Shown one piece after another: positions 2,543-10,706 of a stretch of DNA of 12,264 nucleotides. A model generated the notes under the pieces. The model ran no database searches. It saw only the letters and a list, made by a program, of their open reading frames with translations, and had not been told where the DNA came from. A program made the position numbers and the translations under genes. Positions within the stretch are counted from its first letter, which is position 1. Every line of letters starts with the position of its first letter. The stretch is from a virus, in UHGV virus genome UHGV-0079336; one strand, given 5' to 3'.

Positions 2543-2658
2543 CCGGAGCCTGAACAACTCCGGTGACTTCTGCGCTAAACGGGGACGTTTATGCGCACAT
2601 ACAATCCAACCTATCTTCTCCATTCACAGATGCAGAAATGCACCTACGCTTTTTTACA
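2543..2658 (+). repeat. structured ~115-bp element, copy 1 (three hairpins then T6); candidate small RNA or cis-regulatory RNA
   Basis: Hairpin 1 CCGGAG/CTCCGG (2543-2563). Hairpin 2 is a 10-bp stem with GGGA loop (2572-2596). Hairpin 3 is TGCA-GAAA-TGCA (2631-2642). T6 at 2650-2655. Possible promoter TTGAAA 2507-2512 with AATATT 2531-2536. Homologous to 4950-5066. Confidence 0.45.
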
Positions 2659-2897
2659 TTCGGTGTTTTACTTCGACAGCCAGAATTGGGAGTCTCTATT
2701 CGTCTGGCGGCTAAAGGTGATATGGAAATCGTTATGTTTTGGCCTGAGGTAGTTGTAACTGTTGTAGCAGCTATGGCTGTGATCATCATGGTGTCCATTT
2801 ACTGGGGTTGACGACATGATTTATCCGGCGCTATATTCTGTGCGTTGCCGCAAAATCGGCACACGGGATTGGCGTCCCGGGATACTACTCAACGCAT

Positions 2898-2918
2898 ACC
2901 GCGTTAAGCGGTTTTTTT
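2898..2918 (+). terminator. weak intrinsic terminator candidate
   Basis: ACCGC-GTTAA-GCGGT hairpin followed by T7 (2912-2918). Confidence 0.3.
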
Positions 2919-3018
2919 GTGCGCTAAGCACGGCTATGCCCAAATTATGGTGGGCTGTGTGAGGGCTTCTTCGGAAGCGCCGGGTTTGAGTAGCCGGTTA
3001 CGCCAACCTTACACAGTT

Positions 3019-3049
3019 CACCACCAGTCGATTGGCGTCGTTGGTGGTG
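3019..3049 (+). promoter_or_regulatory. 8-bp inverted repeat upstream of Bro-N gene (possible operator or RNA hairpin)
   Basis: CACCACCA (3019-3026) and TGGTGGTG (3042-3049) separated by 15 nt, about 25 nt before the start at 3075. Confidence 0.25.
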
Positions 3050-3074
3050 ATGGTTAACCTGATGAGGTGATACT

Positions 3075-3683
3075 ATGACTACTCAATTAGCATTCCACAA
3101 AACGACGTTTACCCCGATTTGCCACAATAACAGAATTTGGCTTACTGCCACTGAAGTTGGTTTAGCACTGGAATATGCGGACGATAAAGCAGTTCAGCGC
3201 ATTTACTCTCGGCACTCAGATGAATTCACAGATATGATGACAAGGGTGGTCAAAGTGACCACCCCTCGTGGAATGCAGGAGTCTCGAGTATTTAGCCTTC
3301 GCGGAGCCCATTTGATCGCCATGTTTGCTCGTACTCCTGTGGCCAAAGAATTCCGCCGCTGGGTGCTGGATATTCTCGATCGAGAAGTTCAACAATCACC
3401 AATCACAAAACAATTCACTGATAACGAACTTTGCACACTCGCCTGGTTATGGCGAGCAAGTGATACGATGTTAATCGCCTGCCAGAACGTTACTCCACTT
3501 CTTCAGGTTGCGGAGCACCGCGAAGCCGGTCGCTTTACTTCTATCAGTCAGGAATATCCCCTGATACTCAGCAAGGCGCGAGCAATCCTTGCCAGAGAAA
3601 CGGCGCATGTAAAATTCCAACCGTGGCAGGATGATAAGTGGAGCAGGGTATTGCCACATTTGCGTCAGGCTAGATTGCAATAG
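3075..3683 (+). CDS. Bro-N/AntA-like antirepressor family protein (202 aa)
   Basis: GAGGTGA RBS at 3064-3070. N-terminal region (…NNRIWLTATEVGLALEYADDKAVQRIYSRHSDEF…) resembles the Bro-N/antirepressor N-terminal domain pattern. Assignment from recalled family pattern only. Confidence 0.6.
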   Translation: MTTQLAFHKTTFTPICHNNRIWLTATEVGLALEYADDKAVQRIYSRHSDEFTDMMTRVVKVTTPRGMQESRVFSLRGAHLIAMFARTPVAKEFRRWVLDILDREVQQSPITKQFTDNELCTLAWLWRASDTMLIACQNVTPLLQVAEHREAGRFTSISQEYPLILSKARAILARETAHVKFQPWQDDKWSRVLPHLRQARLQ

Positions 3684-3845
3684 TTTTACATATTAGGCGC
3701 TGAATGGATGCAAGCAGGTAGCGCACTGGGCGGCAATGATTAAGGCTTCAGATAAGCCAAGTAAGCACTGAAGAAGTTCAATGTAATCAAATTCTCTTTA
3801 TGGTATTTTCGTTAGACCCCTCATGCACTTAGATGGAAATTTGAA

Positions 3846-4046
3846 ATGATGTATTCAGTGACTTTCGATGATACTGGACGAGTAGAAGATATTGAACTAG
3901 ATCGTGAGGTTAGAGCCGGAGATAGACTCTCTCTTAATATTGATGGTCTTGATGGTATTTATATAGTCATGACTGTTAGCGGCCCTATCTATGAAAATGT
4001 TTGTATGCCAATGAATATCCGGGTTCAAAAGTATTGGAAGCAATGA
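3846..4046 (+). CDS. hypothetical protein (66 aa)
   Basis: ATG with weak GGAAA upstream; acidic small protein; followed immediately by a strong hairpin. Confidence 0.4.
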   Translation: MMYSVTFDDTGRVEDIELDREVRAGDRLSLNIDGLDGIYIVMTVSGPIYENVCMPMNIRVQKYWKQ

Positions 4047-4051
4047 TGTAT

Positions 4052-4080
4052 AATCCCCTCAGATGCTCGAGGGGATTTTT
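4052..4080 (+). terminator. hairpin with T-run (terminator or attenuator); 3' arm overlaps the RBS of the next gene
   Basis: AATCCCCTC (4052-4060) pairs with GAGGGGATT (4069-4077) around an 8-nt loop; T5 at 4076-4080; ATG at 4081. Confidence 0.45.
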
Positions 4081-4308
4081 ATGTCAGACTGGAACATTGC
4101 AGCAAAACCGCAAAAGGAACGTGACAAGGTAAGCGTTGGCCTTGCGCTTTCAGGTGTAGCGTATAAAGAACGCCCGAACATGCCGGTTATAGCTAAACAG
4201 GTAGCTAGAGAACAACTTGGGCATCTCCGCGAGTACTTAATGGATCGCGTCCGTTATTACCGTAAGCAGAGCATCACCTTCCAAAAGCATCCGAACCACG
4301 CTACATAG
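4081..4308 (+). CDS. hypothetical protein (75 aa)
   Basis: ATG 4081 with GAGGGGA at 4069-4075. The tracked ORF start at 4063 lies in the hairpin loop and is less likely. Backbone-like GC. Confidence 0.5.
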   Translation: MSDWNIAAKPQKERDKVSVGLALSGVAYKERPNMPVIAKQVAREQLGHLREYLMDRVRYYRKQSITFQKHPNHAT

Positions 4309-4323
4309 AAATGGCAGACTTAA

Positions 4324-4911
4324 ATGCAAGAAAATGAAAAGCAAGAGCAGCATGAAACTGAACCTCAGGATTTAGATTTTCCAGCAGAATTTGACTCTCT
4401 GATTAATGCAAATGGAAAGATAACACCTGCATTGCTAACGGTAGTTAACCGGTATTTTTTATATTTTTCATTCTTTGAATCACTTCTTTTGGGGTGTTCT
4501 GGAAGTCAGGGGAAGAGTTCGAAATACGCAGCGAAATTGTTGGAATTCAAATTAGTTGATCTTGACGTTCTTAAGCGAACATACTTCTTTTTTGCAGACC
4601 GTTATCTGGCAGATGTAGTGAAGTTTGAAAACCTATGTGGTGATTTAGAGCATACATCGCAGAAGGCTAGGGATGAAAAAATTAAGGCCATGCAATTAAA
4701 GACAAACGACCCTGAAATTCAGTTAGGTGTTTGTATTTTTGTTTGTTTCAGGTTGCGAAACAACCTTTTTCATGGACCAAAATGGCGTTATTTGCTTGAT
4801 GGGCAAGAGGATTTGCTCTTAATTGCCGGAAATTTTATACATTCTATTCTATTACAGGTGCCTAGTAGAGATGGCTGGGAATTCAAGAATATTTTAACTT
4901 CTACTGATTAG
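4324..4911 (+). CDS. hypothetical AT-rich cargo protein (195 aa) with HEPN-like Rx4H motif; putative RNase/abortive-infection toxin
   Basis: ORF in an AT-rich island. Contains …CFRLRNNLFHGPKW… (R-N-x-x-x-H spacing as in HEPN RNases). Poor SD, so start is uncertain. Function is inferred from the motif only. Confidence 0.5.
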   Translation: MQENEKQEQHETEPQDLDFPAEFDSLINANGKITPALLTVVNRYFLYFSFFESLLLGCSGSQGKSSKYAAKLLEFKLVDLDVLKRTYFFFADRYLADVVKFENLCGDLEHTSQKARDEKIKAMQLKTNDPEIQLGVCIFVCFRLRNNLFHGPKWRYLLDGQEDLLLIAGNFIHSILLQVPSRDGWEFKNILTSTD

Positions 4912-4949
4912 CTTTGATTTTCCATAATCAACCCGCCATAATCATGTCA

Positions 4950-5066
4950 TCGGAGCCTGAACAACTCCGGTGACTTCTGCGCTTTGAGGGGACTCAAAGT
5001 GCAAACGACAATCAGAACACCTTTCAACCAGTCACAGATGCAGAAATGCACCTGCGATTTTTTGCA
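4950..5066 (+). repeat. structured ~115-bp element, copy 2; candidate small RNA or cis-regulatory RNA just upstream of ninB
   Basis: Hairpin 1 at 4950-4970. Hairpin 2 GCGCTTTGAG-GGGA-CTCAAAGTGC at 4979-5002. TGCA-GAAA-TGCA at 5039-5050. T6 at 5058-5063. Possible promoter TTGATT 4914-4919 with CATAAT 4937-4942. Confidence 0.45.
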
Positions 5067-5096
5067 TCCAACGTTTGACCTCTGCGGAGGTGAAGC

Positions 5097-5552
5097 GTGA
5101 ACCTCCCACAAGACGGCATCAAATTACATCGCGGTAACTTCACCGCTATCGGTAAGCAGATCCAGCCTTATCTGGAGGACGGAAAATGCTTTCGCATGGT
5201 GCTTAAACCGTGGCGCGAGAGACGCAGTCTTTCCCAGAATGCACTCAGCCACATGTGGTACAGCGAAATCAGTGAGTACCTCATCAGCAGGGGGAAATCG
5301 TTCGCTACTGCAGCATGGGTAAAAGATGCTCTCAAACACACATACCTCGGTTATGAAACCAAGGACCTGGTTGATGTCGTAACCGGCGAAATCACTACGA
5401 TCCAGTCGTTACGCCATACCTCCGATCTTGATACCGGAGAGATGTATGTCTTCCTGTGTAAGGTTGAAGCCTGGGCGATGAATATTGGCTGCCACCTGAC
5501 TATTCCGCAGAGCTGCGAGTTCCAGCTGCTGCGCGACAAGCAGGAGGCGTAA
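5097..5552 (+). CDS. ninB: NinB-family recombination protein (YbcN-like, 151 aa)
   Basis: GTG start with GGAGG at 5086-5090. Translation ([15 protein letters not shown]…[18 protein letters not shown]…) matches the DLP12 YbcN/NinB family as recalled. Confidence 0.9.
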
Positions 5553-6364: not shown

Positions 6365-6501
6365 TGTTTGAGTCTTATATGGCAGAACGTCTTCGCCGCC
6401 GCTGGGTGCGCCTGCGCTTATATCGTTTTCCCGGTTCTGTTTTGACCGATTACCGAATACTGAAGAATTACGCCAAAACACTGAAAGGAGCTGCCGCATG
6501 A
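6361..6501 (+). CDS. ylcG: YlcG-like small prophage protein (46 aa)
   Basis: Not in ORF track. ATG-ATG start overlapping rusA stop; stop overlaps the ATG of the next gene (ATGA). Syntenic with DLP12 rusA-ylcG. Confidence 0.5.
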
Positions 6502-7187
6502 ATATCCAATATTTACAGTATGTTCGCGAGCAACTCATGGTGGCTACCGCTGATTTGAGCGGAGTAACGAAAGGCCAGCTTGAAGCCTGGCTGGAGCATG
6601 CTCAATTTGATACTGGTACATACAAACGAAAGAAGCCGCGCATTCTGGATGAGGTAACTGGCAGGATGATTACGCTGGATAATCCGCCGATTTCCGGTAA
6701 GCAGTCGTACGCAAAAGGTTCATCCATTGCACTGGTCAGCCAGGTTGAGTTCTCAACATCTTCATGGCGCCGCGCGGTTCTGTCTCTCGAAGAACATCAG
6801 AAAGCGTGGTTGCTGTGGAGTTACAGCGAAAGTGTTCGCTGGGAGCATCAGGTTGCCATAACGCAGTGGGCATGGAACGAGTTTAAAGCTCTGTTAGGTA
6901 CAAGAAAAATTGCCAGTAAGACACTGGAACGCTTAAAGAAGTTGATCTGGCTGGCGGCACAGGATGTGAAGAACGAGCTGGCAGGGCGTAAGACCTATGA
7001 ATACCAGGAGCTGGCATCACTGGTGGGAGTGACATCAAAAAACTGGTCTGAGACATTTACTGAACGCTGGGTTGCAATGAAGCACATTTTTCTACAGCTT
7101 GATAGCCAAGCTTTATTGCTTTTAACGAAAACACGTTCAAAACAAAAGACGACATTTTCACAGCAAAGTATTGCAAAACTGGATTAA
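6498..7187 (+). CDS. putative late-gene antiterminator Q-like protein (229 aa)
   Basis: AAGGAG RBS at 6485-6490. Lies between rusA/ylcG and a promoter-leader-terminator region preceding the lysis cassette, the canonical Q position. Family not verified by sequence. Confidence 0.5.
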   Translation: MNIQYLQYVREQLMVATADLSGVTKGQLEAWLEHAQFDTGTYKRKKPRILDEVTGRMITLDNPPISGKQSYAKGSSIALVSQVEFSTSSWRRAVLSLEEHQKAWLLWSYSESVRWEHQVAITQWAWNEFKALLGTRKIASKTLERLKKLIWLAAQDVKNELAGRKTYEYQELASLVGVTSKNWSETFTERWVAMKHIFLQLDSQALLLLTKTRSKQKTTFSQQSIAKLD

Positions 7188-7199
7188 AAAGCATATATT
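7171..7199 (+). promoter_or_regulatory. late promoter candidate (pR'-like), overlapping the Q stop codon
   Basis: TTGCAA (7171-7176), 17-bp spacer, TATATT (7194-7199). Confidence 0.5.
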
Positions 7200-7368
7200 T
7201 CGTGTAAATCTGATATTTTGCCAATGTTGTACGCACTGGCAGTAATCCAAATTCAAGCTCGAGGTTTAAAGCCTTGGGCTTTTCTGTTTCTGGGCGGTGA
7301 GTATCCTTCCGACGTACCCCAGCCAGGGTGTCTTCAGCTGTTGAGTTGATATTGCTTAACCCTCTGTT

Positions 7369-10211: not shown

Positions 10212-10706
10212 ATGGCTGGAACGGCGGGGCGTTCCGGGCGTCGCCCCAAGCCAACGGCGCGCAAGGCGCTGGCCGGAAACCCCGGCAAGCGAGCCCTGAA
10301 CAAAGATGAACCTGTTTTTACGCCCATCAAAGGTGTTGAGCCACCGGAGTGGTTCGCAGAAGAAGATCTCCCTCTCGCCACGATCATGTGGCAACTGACA
10401 ACCAAAGAACTCTGCGGTCAGGGCCTGCTGTGCGTGACTGACCTGGCGGTACTTGAGCGGTGGTGCGTGGCCTATGAGTTCTGGCGACGTGCCGTGAAAA
10501 ATATTGCCAGCCAGGGCAACACCATCACCGGTGCAATGGGCGGCAGGGTCAAAAACCCGGAGCTGACCGCCAAGAAAGAACAGGAGTCCGAGATGAGCAG
10601 CACGGGGGCAATGCTCGGACTCGACCCCAGCAGCCGCCAGCGTCTGATAGGCCTGGCGGGGCAGAAGAAAGCCACTAACCCGTTTCTGAAAATCATCGAA
10701 TCATGA
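10212..10706 (+). CDS. terS: terminase small subunit (P27/HK97 gp1 family)
   Basis: ATG 10212 with AGGAG at 10198-10202; the tracked GTG at 10203 has no spacer. N-terminus [34 protein letters not shown] is typical of P27-family small terminases. Confidence 0.85.

Follow-up and report, generated by a model that had tools for sequence, protein, structure and literature searches.

In the viral genome stretch UHGV-0079336, a DNA of 12,264 nucleotides (nt) that is referred to as the window and of which all coordinates are given on the + strand, a structured element lies directly in front of ybcN, the ninB-type gene that opens an operon ending in Q. The window is a lambdoid prophage of Escherichia coli, and the question that this locus raises is what such an element does between the cargo genes upstream and the nin and Q genes downstream of it. 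An earlier reading of the sequence alone (the original prediction) had considered it to be either an antitermination or processing signal, coupling expression of the downstream genes to this site, or a terminator module only.

By comparing copies of the element from phages and prophages, we arrived at a different answer. Judged from this comparison of sequences, the element comprises a promoter signature, four hairpins, a short open reading frame (ORF) of which both the frame and the overlap with the next gene are kept, and a sequestered ribosome-binding site. With moderate confidence we read 4914-5100 as a leader with a promoter of its own which, by means of this leader ORF, gates the nin genes and Q at the level of translation and probably also of transcription in lambdoid prophages of the phage 82/phi80 type. 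Since the leader directly precedes the operon that supplies Q, the activator of the late genes, its action would set how tightly lysogens hold off their lysis genes.

Identity and distribution of the element

The copy in front of ybcN (copy 2) extends on the + strand from the -35 hexamer to the ybcN start (4914-5100) and is, by its sequence, a homologue of the phage 82 'orf33' and E. coli K-12 ylcH elements. The claim that it is the second copy of a structured element was borne out, the first being present at 2534-2674. BLAST placed the element in 48 phage records, including those of phage 82, HK639, HK225, phi80 and Klebsiella and Enterobacter phages, with phage 82, HK639 and others showing 83-88% identity over 89-94% of the query. 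A megablast search of 5426 complete E. coli genomes located the 189-nt element in at least 2889 (at least 53%), K-12 included, with up to three places per genome, and the element is also present in phages or prophages of Klebsiella, Enterobacter and Lelliottia. Copies were gathered in three ways, namely by a loop-containing pattern, by BLAST and via the YbcN protein. The last of these is independent of the RNA, and all 79 usable loci out of the 80 fetched in this way have the element.

The gene that follows the leader is of the YbcN, NinB or DUF1367 type or, in locus L087, Q itself, and the element therefore always heads an operon that ends in Q. In the window this operon consists of ybcN, ninE, ybcO, rusA, ylcG and Q, among which Pfam matches to NinB, YbcO, RusA and Phage_antiter_Q were obtained. 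Its first gene, ybcN (NinB/Orf-family; 5097-5552, + strand), was assigned from the ORF list, a PHROG 72 match (6.6e-52) and the RefSeq annotation of the near-identical prophage of strain LR-50, and its last gene, Q (6498-7187, + strand), from the match to Pfam Phage_antiter_Q.

No Rfam covariance model matched at E <= 1 within 2534-2674 or 4914-5100, and the corresponding sites in HK639, phi80 and K-12 gave no match either. A pattern search of genome contigs with CCTGAACAA-N8-14-CTTCTGCG yielded nearly exclusively chance matches in unrelated phyla, the only real ones being L143 (Lelliottia) and L218. In a full-text literature search the sequence of the element was nowhere printed, and the combination of 'ylcH' with 'ybcN' gave nothing relevant. 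The kind of mechanism that we propose is already known; the RNA family is undescribed and Rfam has no entry for it. Despite the strong comparative support for its four hairpins and leader frame, the searchable literature shows no functional test of the element.

Promoter signature and palindrome

The promoter scan lists on the + strand the pair TTGATT (-35 hexamer, 4914-4919) and CATAAT (-10 hexamer, 4937-4942, which is also the putative -10 of the phage 82 record X92588), with a spacing of 17 base pairs (bp) and 9 of 12 matches; the hexamers and their spacing had been predicted exactly so. A match of this kind in a single sequence is not significant on its own, the scan giving 34 promoter-like sites compared to 24 expected, and the support for a promoter comes instead from conservation across homologues. 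This conservation was measured in 89 copies with unrelated upstream flanks, which serve as independent contexts. TTGATT is present in 78 of them, CATAAT in 75 and the 17-bp spacer in 84 (84-94%), and the information content is zero up to the base preceding TTGATT and rises exactly at the -35. On this comparative basis, 4914-4942 bears a conserved sigma-70-type promoter signature.

The -35 hexamer is moreover one arm of a palindrome, TTGATT-N6-AATCAA, in which it pairs with AATCAA (4926-4931) in the promoter spacer. This palindrome occurs once in the window, and in 1.4 Mb of loci 158 of its 169 occurrences fall within copies of the element and 11 elsewhere. Because its arms do not covary and the Klebsiella copies lack it, a role as operator is only a guess. 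The half-sites TTGAT/ATCAA match those of FNR; an FNR site was dropped as a candidate, the spacing of the half-sites being 8 and not 4 and the site overlapping the -35 and the spacer. Another candidate, a sigma-dependent pause or Q-loading site, was rejected as well, the first 35 transcribed bases being devoid of a TAnnnT-type hexamer. A second TTGAT-N8-ATCAA palindrome lies over the start codon of a cro-like gene in the LR-50 prophage (L003 3281-3298) and likewise in L012, L021, L042, L044, L107 and L118, which may be due to chance (about one is expected per 1.4 Mb) or may reflect a shared operator.

Folding of the leader RNA

The RNA from 4948 to 5100 folds at -59.5 kcal/mol compared to -39.2 +/- 3.9 kcal/mol for shuffled sequences (z = -5.25), and none of 200 shuffles folded as well. 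A covariance model built from 13 sequences retrieved 108 copies, and base pairs were counted on 100 distinct rows; the rows were aligned to this model, a MAFFT alignment having misplaced hairpin 2. In these rows 97.3% of the cells are paired, against 83.8% with shuffled partners and 26-36% with slid partners, and changes on both sides were seen in 23 of 28 pairs (hairpin 1, 9 of 10; hairpin 2, all 10; hairpin 3, 4 of 7). RNAalifold, run de novo, gives the same three hairpins. The compensatory changes in these three hairpins, together with the retention of a fourth hairpin in unrelated sequences (see below), show selection on RNA structure, and the G-U pairs in the stems show that the folding molecule is the + strand RNA.

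Hairpin 1 (4946-4974, + strand), defined by fold and covariation, has a 10-bp stem with one U-G pair and a 9-nt loop, CCUGAACAA, at 4956-4964. It follows the promoter immediately, as the original prediction had it, and begins 4 nt before the first base, 4950, that was given there. Among homologues its stem is swapped wholesale, with versions such as CAYCGGAG, CUGCCAGCGG, GCUGACGG, CCGCCGG, GUCAG and AUAGG; in phi80, L072, L248, L246 and L247 the stem is wholly different and the loop pattern YYUGRRCWN is kept. Even in copies that were found without use of the loop, the loop is close to this pattern. In the phage 82 record, hairpin 1 bears the label 'possible regulator-binding site'. Its 3' arm also lies within a stretch (4959-4998) with 70% complementarity over 40 nt to the small-terminase region (10316-10355), including 17 nt at 88%. 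This is probably a chance match, comparable ones being common in the repeat list, and the 17-nt complementarity of hairpin 1 to 10339-10355 was discarded as being at chance level.

Hairpin 2 (4979-5002, + strand), which covaries in the very position that had been predicted for it, consists of a 10-bp stem, a Shine-Dalgarno-like GGGA loop (4989-4992) and, in its 3' arm, a GTG start codon (4999-5001). At least five distinct versions of its stem exist, with energies of -12 to -16 kcal/mol, and every one of them combines a GGA-containing loop (GGGA or GGAA) with a 3' arm that holds an ATG or GTG, the loop being positioned 6-7 nt upstream of this codon in all stem versions. In the phi80 record the same hairpin is present as 'IR4'.

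Hairpin 3 with its T-run (5035-5063, + strand) lies inside the leader ORF and reads CAG-a-UGCA GAAA UGCA-c-CUG at 5035-5054, followed by CGA and by T6 at 5058-5063. Variants of its stem are CCG-a-UGGC/GCCA-c-CGG in Klebsiella phages and UGCU/GGCA with variable loops, and variants of the U-tract are TTCTTT, TATCTT and TGTCTT. The terminator scan lists only a 5-pair alternative at this site, and hairpin 3 is a weak terminator candidate. The minimum-free-energy fold contains a long alternative hairpin here (GAUGCAGAAA with UUUUUGCAUC), which is lost in the UGCU/GGCA and Klebsiella variants and was set aside in favour of the covarying hairpin 3. Pairing of UUCUGC repeats with GCAGAA was likewise rejected, this pairing not being kept in L246 and L247.

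Leader ORF and sequestration of the ybcN start

The GTG in hairpin 2 opens a leader ORF of 33 codons (4999-5100, + strand), homologous to K-12 ylcH (b4588) and phage 82 orf33, the stop codon of which (TGA, 5098-5100) overlaps the start codon of ybcN (GTG, 5097-5099) in the sequence GTGA. This ybcN start at 5097 and the stop of the upstream ORF at 4911 are exactly as originally given. A length of 31-33 codons with an end in GTGA or ATGA over the next start was found in 176 of 184 instances, and the in-frame stop is present in 85 of 86 unique leaders, though their N- and C-terminal parts vary in version and length. Variation is spread evenly over the three codon positions (16:16:16 and 17:19:20), and synonymous compared to nonsynonymous changes number 14:34 and 15:39, which is about 1:2.5. 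This even spread and neutral ratio indicate a peptide that is free of purifying selection and, with the frame nevertheless kept, suggest that what counts is translation as such and not its product. Elsewhere, the start codon in hairpin 2 opens a DUF1367 gene (7.9e-98; L009-type loci) and an ORF of 74 amino acids (L125). We infer that the leader ORF is translated in the cell, for which the use of its start codon by these other genes would be indirect support.

Between hairpins 2 and 3, within the leader ORF, lies an unpaired linker (5003-5034, + strand) recognised by its C-rich and G-poor base composition. Averaged over 50 unique linkers it contains 35% C and 5% G, compared to 20% C and 24% G for the window, and this composition is kept in three unrelated versions; the linker might serve as a site for loading of Rho. 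At the other end of the leader, hairpin 4 (5071-5098, + strand), identified by folding, buries the Shine-Dalgarno sequence of ybcN (GGAGG, 5086-5090) together with two bases, the first and second, of the GTG that starts this gene. In nearly all of 62 junction variants, which comprise at least four unrelated versions, the next gene has its Shine-Dalgarno sequence and start codon buried in this manner, with hairpin 4 energies of about -11 to -24 kcal/mol among the commonest ones.

The original prediction is thus partly supported. The element that it placed at 4950-5066 is real and extends further, from 4914 to 5100; what it missed are the leader ORF, hairpin 2 as the start region of this ORF, the location of hairpin 3 inside it, and hairpin 4.

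RNA from the K-12 locus

For K-12, 3' ends determined by Term-seq are available, and on the + strand such ends are listed at 572349 and 572350 (NC_000913.3; L005 6350-6351) in two of three data sheets (Adams et al. 2021, PMC7815308). The RNA ends in ...CUCCGGUGACUUCUG, which is 5 nt past hairpin 1 and leaves 19 nt to the start of ylcH, and the position scores low, among the weakest listed nearby. No Term-seq 3' end is listed at hairpin 3 in K-12, where the U-tract is degenerate and expression is low. As these 3' ends follow hairpin 1, an RNA containing hairpin 1 exists in vivo; the ends may result from weak termination, pausing or processing, and the RNA may come from the leader promoter or from ybcLM. 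The ylcH RNA has been reported in the literature to be 2-fold up in microaerobic growth.

A 3' end one base earlier (572348, a U) would, as GGUGACUUCU|G, agree with the consensus for pausing, G(-10) Y(-1) G(+1), with the upper 5 bp of hairpin 1 located about 10 nt upstream, as in hairpin-stabilised pauses.

A model for leader action

In the model that we favour, the sigma-70-type promoter (TTGATT, 17 bp, CATAAT) would start an RNA at about 4949. As the covariation shows, the RNA folds into the 5'-terminal hairpin 1 with its conserved loop and into hairpin 2. The latter would expose its Shine-Dalgarno-like loop and keep the leader start codon in its stem, and because the start codon is held there, translation of the leader would begin only rarely. 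A ribosome that does translate the leader would cover the C-rich linker, melt hairpin 3 and open hairpin 4 and, by stopping at the UGA over the ybcN start, would couple ybcN to leader translation. Without leader translation, ybcN would stay untranslated and the naked RNA would be prone to early termination, either by Rho acting on the linker and/or weakly at hairpin 3 and its U-tract, which would have a polar effect on ninE, rusA and Q. Taken together, the leader would act as a low-leak gate in front of Q. At one locus (L087) the leader is fused directly to the Q gene, and a link between the element and nin/Q expression, as put forward in the original prediction, is plausible. The leader would also offer a plausible reason for the silence of rusA and the Q-side genes of DLP12 in K-12, which we take to be the case.

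Several observations weigh against this model. No start site is present at the K-12 locus in the Cappable-seq and SMRT-Cappable-seq supplements, and the K-12 RNA could be read-through of ybcLM. The start codon of the leader is situated inside a helix of -12 to -16 kcal/mol. In 67 of 86 leaders the +1 frame is open as well, and the openness of the frame alone therefore proves little. Hairpin 3 is weak (-6.2 kcal/mol) and separated by a 3-nt gap from a U-tract that varies (4-7 U in 11 nt), and the linker is just 26-28 nt long; being dependent on a poor terminator and on such a short linker, the transcriptional half of the model is its least secure part. Three features find no explanation in the leader model, namely the conserved loop of hairpin 1, for which it has no role, the 3' end just past this hairpin and the TTGAT-N8-ATCAA palindrome. 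Finally, the pairs were counted on an alignment that had been fitted to the structure, and the loop-containing pattern supplied many of the copies; those derived from BLAST and from YbcN were used to offset this.

The loop of hairpin 1 and the promoter palindrome could possibly form the docking site of a protein or RNA that acts in trans and decides on leader translation or on polymerase passage, a suggestion that we hold to be distinctly unlikely. If true, it would mean that there is an unrecognised checkpoint for Q, and hence for lysis, in more than half of the E. coli genomes, and the promoter-leader could then be the main route to Q in phages like HK639, the record of which shows no right-operon antiterminator.

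Alternative explanations

The element could be a terminator or insulator only, equivalent to tR2, in which unmodified polymerase that has set out from pR or from cargo promoters is halted at hairpin 1 and/or hairpin 3, with Q being off in lysogens and the hexamers and ORF being incidental. It does occupy the position of lambda tR2 and is preceded by cargo with promoters of its own, the T-run after hairpin 3 has an entry in the terminator scan there, locus L125 has a different hairpin plus T-run in place of hairpin 3, and the K-12 3' end 5 nt past hairpin 1 lies downstream of the co-oriented ybcLM. A terminator, however, has no need for a conserved loop, a -35/-10 pair, an in-frame leader ORF or a sequestered ribosome-binding site. 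In addition, hairpin 3 reaches only -6.2 kcal/mol, with a variable U-tract 3 nt off and no K-12 Term-seq 3' end, and ACUUCUGCGC, which follows hairpin 1, is no U-tract. The terminator-only option of the original prediction is for these reasons weak, and we regard it as unlikely. The element could also be a small RNA gene, from which the promoter makes a stable non-coding RNA that acts in trans via the loop of hairpin 1. Such an RNA would measure about 35 nt if it consists of hairpin 1, or about 110 nt if it comprises hairpins 1-3 up to the T-run. The conserved succession of promoter, structured RNA and T-run would fit such a gene, as would the detection in K-12 of a short RNA ending just past hairpin 1 and a loop that stays constant while its stem covaries, as in kissing-loop antisense RNAs. 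This is quite improbable, however, in view of the lack of a standout complement of the loop in the window (13 matches with at most 2 mismatches, compared to 9.5 expected) and of any other hairpin-1-like hairpin in the early regions examined, of a U-tract that is not conserved and of a Term-seq signal that is among the weakest nearby, and the coupling features favour a cis-acting mRNA leader.

Processive antitermination in cis, similar to HK022 put or to nut, would have hairpins 1 and 2 modify the polymerase or recruit a factor for read-through to Q. Two adjacent hairpins (about 55 nt) directly after a promoter indeed recall putL after pL, and the HK639 record annotates a put-like RNA in the left operon only, yet the element precedes ninB in this phage. 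Moreover, the inner loop of hairpin 1, U-GAACA-A (GAGCA and GGACA in Klebsiella copies), presumably resembles a GNRA-like boxB pentaloop, a resemblance that would speak for antitermination as well. The closing pair of this loop is lost, however, in variants such as UCUGAACAC and a-CUGAACA-u, and no boxA flanks hairpin 1 by eye. The covariance model, with filters off, found no match on the putL-like RNA of HK639, nor was any similarity evident by eye, and the simple hairpins of the element differ from put stems, which are long and bulged. Phages that have the element moreover differ in their immunity regions, ninB and the genes after it up to Q overlap, with no intrinsic terminators between ninB and Q and no strong ones to read through, and hairpin 2 is already accounted for as a translation start site. 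Together with the absence of an Rfam match, this leaves the antitermination signal of the original prediction without backing, and we consider it very improbable. There remains the idea that the element is a recombination linker only, conserved as homology for lambdoid module swaps, with structure and ORF as by-products. The copies that flank exchangeable cargo in at least eight loci, the abrupt divergence of the flanks at the edges of the element and the neutral-looking substitution pattern of the ORF are in line with it, but compensatory changes in three hairpins, a hairpin 4 kept in unrelated sequences, and stems that are replaced wholesale while loops, hexamers and frame stay are not, and as a sole explanation we give it hardly any weight. 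A recombination-linker role probably coexists with the leader function.

Copy 1, cargo and proposed module exchange

The gene order in the window is a split P-loop/NACHT-like ORF, copy 1, an isrK/C4 module, an antirepressor with further cargo, copy 2, the genes ybcN to Q, and lysis and terminase genes; over 2544-5200 the window is 99.8% identical to the LR-50 prophage. Copy 1 (2534-2674, + strand) was recognised from the repeat families D1 and D2, by alignment and by a covariance-model match of 73 bits, with hairpin 1 at 2542-2564, hairpin 2 at 2572-2596 and hairpin 3 at 2627-2646 (+ strand). It is 91% identical to copy 2 at 2544-2586 (hairpin 1 to the loop of hairpin 2) and 82% at 2620-2674 (hairpin 3 and T-run). 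In copy 1 the canonical promoter and the 3' end are replaced, hairpin 3 has a broken outer pair, and the ORF extends to 53 codons without coupling. Its junction with the upstream cargo is the 5' edge of hairpin 1, a junction which in L284 is found directly before ybcN. About 185 nt downstream of copy 1 follows the isrK/C4 module, with the same spacing in L033, L039, L107 and L114, and in copies that precede this module hairpins 1 and 2 are intact while decay has set in at the ORF, at the outer pair of hairpin 3 and at hairpin 4.

The cargo between the copies (2675-4913, + strand) was annotated with Rfam and Pfam and comprises the isrK/C4 immunity-type RNA module, a Bro-N/P22AR antirepressor, a 66-amino-acid ORF, a homologue of DNA polymerase III theta and a 195-amino-acid ORF. 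Such a two-copy layout is also found in L034, L033, L107, L039 and L114 and, with other cargo, in L087 and L125, giving at least eight loci with the window, and the flanks diverge abruptly at the edges of the element. We propose that the window has two copies because the leader serves as shared homology for the exchange of cargo cassettes. Leader copies mark a recurrent insertion point for cargo (antirepressor modules, possible defence genes), which makes them useful for the annotation of prophage hotspots. In L087 (6845-11076) the order is a leader copy, a truncated ybcN, about 3.5 kb of cargo with ORFs of 380 and 620 amino acids, and a second leader copy coupled directly to a Q-family gene (Pfam Antiterm, 1e-23).

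Within the cargo of the window, a P1/P7-like immunity module at 2831-3028, with c4-a1b1 targets and matches to isrK (58.7 bits) and C4 (74.8 bits), precedes the Bro-N/P22AR antirepressor gene at 3075-3683. The theta (HolE-like) gene lies at 4063-4308; its LR-50 counterpart is frameshifted according to RefSeq, and HK639, CobraSix and Klebsiella phage 2b have theta homologues right in front of the leader. The ORF at 4324-4911, which the original prediction had labelled HEPN-like, has no Pfam or PADLOC match and matches only phrog_27260 (function unknown), leaving this label unverified. Upstream of copy 1, the ORFs at 510-986 and 997-2463 match consecutive parts of phrog_18297 (40-153 and 164-473) and, weakly, NB-ARC/NACHT; from these matches, 510-2463 looks like one P-loop STAND-type gene that is split by a stop or frameshift, in AT-rich cargo, and the cargo of LR-50 differs in this region. 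Right after Q, a weak isrJ match (7171-7282; 26 bits, below the Rfam gathering score) is preceded by a promoter-like site (7171-7199) and ends in the strongest terminator-like hairpin of the window (7255-7281). HK639 shows the same layout after its Q gene (L330 11282-11354, 34.6 bits), and the 'isrJ' family may be a short late-promoter (pR'-type) leader RNA of Q82-type phages.

Comparison with known systems

The closest relatives of the element are those of phage 82 (X92588) and of K-12 DLP12, where it contains ylcH (b4588). The same element, with 83-85% identity over the whole 200 nt, is present there in the same place before orf151/ybcN, with a putative -35/-10, an inverted repeat (hairpin 1) and a 33-codon ORF over the next start. 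What the two records describe is limited to these putative signals and an uncharacterised small protein, the four hairpins, the neutral peptide and the sequestration being undescribed. The window differs from both in the stem of hairpin 2 and the N-terminal third of the leader, which are of a different version (GTG start, type C).

In lambda, the slot between the replication/ren/cargo region and ninB is taken by tR2, and a hairpin plus T-run is present in both phages. Lambda has, however, one strong GC-rich hairpin with a U-tract in a gap of 73 bp, and neither a promoter nor a leader ORF nor further hairpins, whereas the terminator-like hairpin of the window is weak (-6.2 kcal/mol) and lies inside an ORF, and the two share no sequence similarity. 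With the nut sites of lambda and P22 the element has in common that an early-operon transcript carries a hairpin of which the purine-rich loop is conserved; some variants of this loop fit a G-N-R-x-A pentaloop. It differs from them in lacking a boxA by eye, in a loop of 7-9 nt of which the closing pair is not conserved, and in being present whatever the immunity type.

The put RNAs of HK022 and HK639 are likewise promoter-proximal, paired stem-loops in lambdoid phages, and HK639 has both a putL-like RNA and the element. PutL lies just downstream of pL and forms two stem-loops, the put stems being long and bulged in an RNA of about 70 nt (PMC9378689). The element, in contrast, has no sequence or model similarity to put, is situated before ninB and not after pL or pR, and consists of short, simple hairpins, the second of which is a translation start site.

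In its proposed mode of action, the element comes nearest to leader-ORF control, of which tnaC and the pyrBI leader are further enterobacterial examples besides mdtU-mdtJI. In the latter, too, a short upstream ORF is involved of which the translation and not the peptide matters, pairing is predicted between the 3' region of the upstream ORF and the next gene's ribosome-binding site, and the leader RNA has 3' ends. Adams et al. 2021 (PMC7815308) described the mdtU case in the same study in which the ylcH 3' end is listed among the '3' ends upstream of ORFs'. Compared to these leader-ORF systems, the leader of the window has no evident ligand or stalling signal and its peptide is not conserved; it is set apart from them by a start codon that is locked in a stable hairpin, by an extra 5' hairpin with a conserved loop, and by being phage-borne and mobile.

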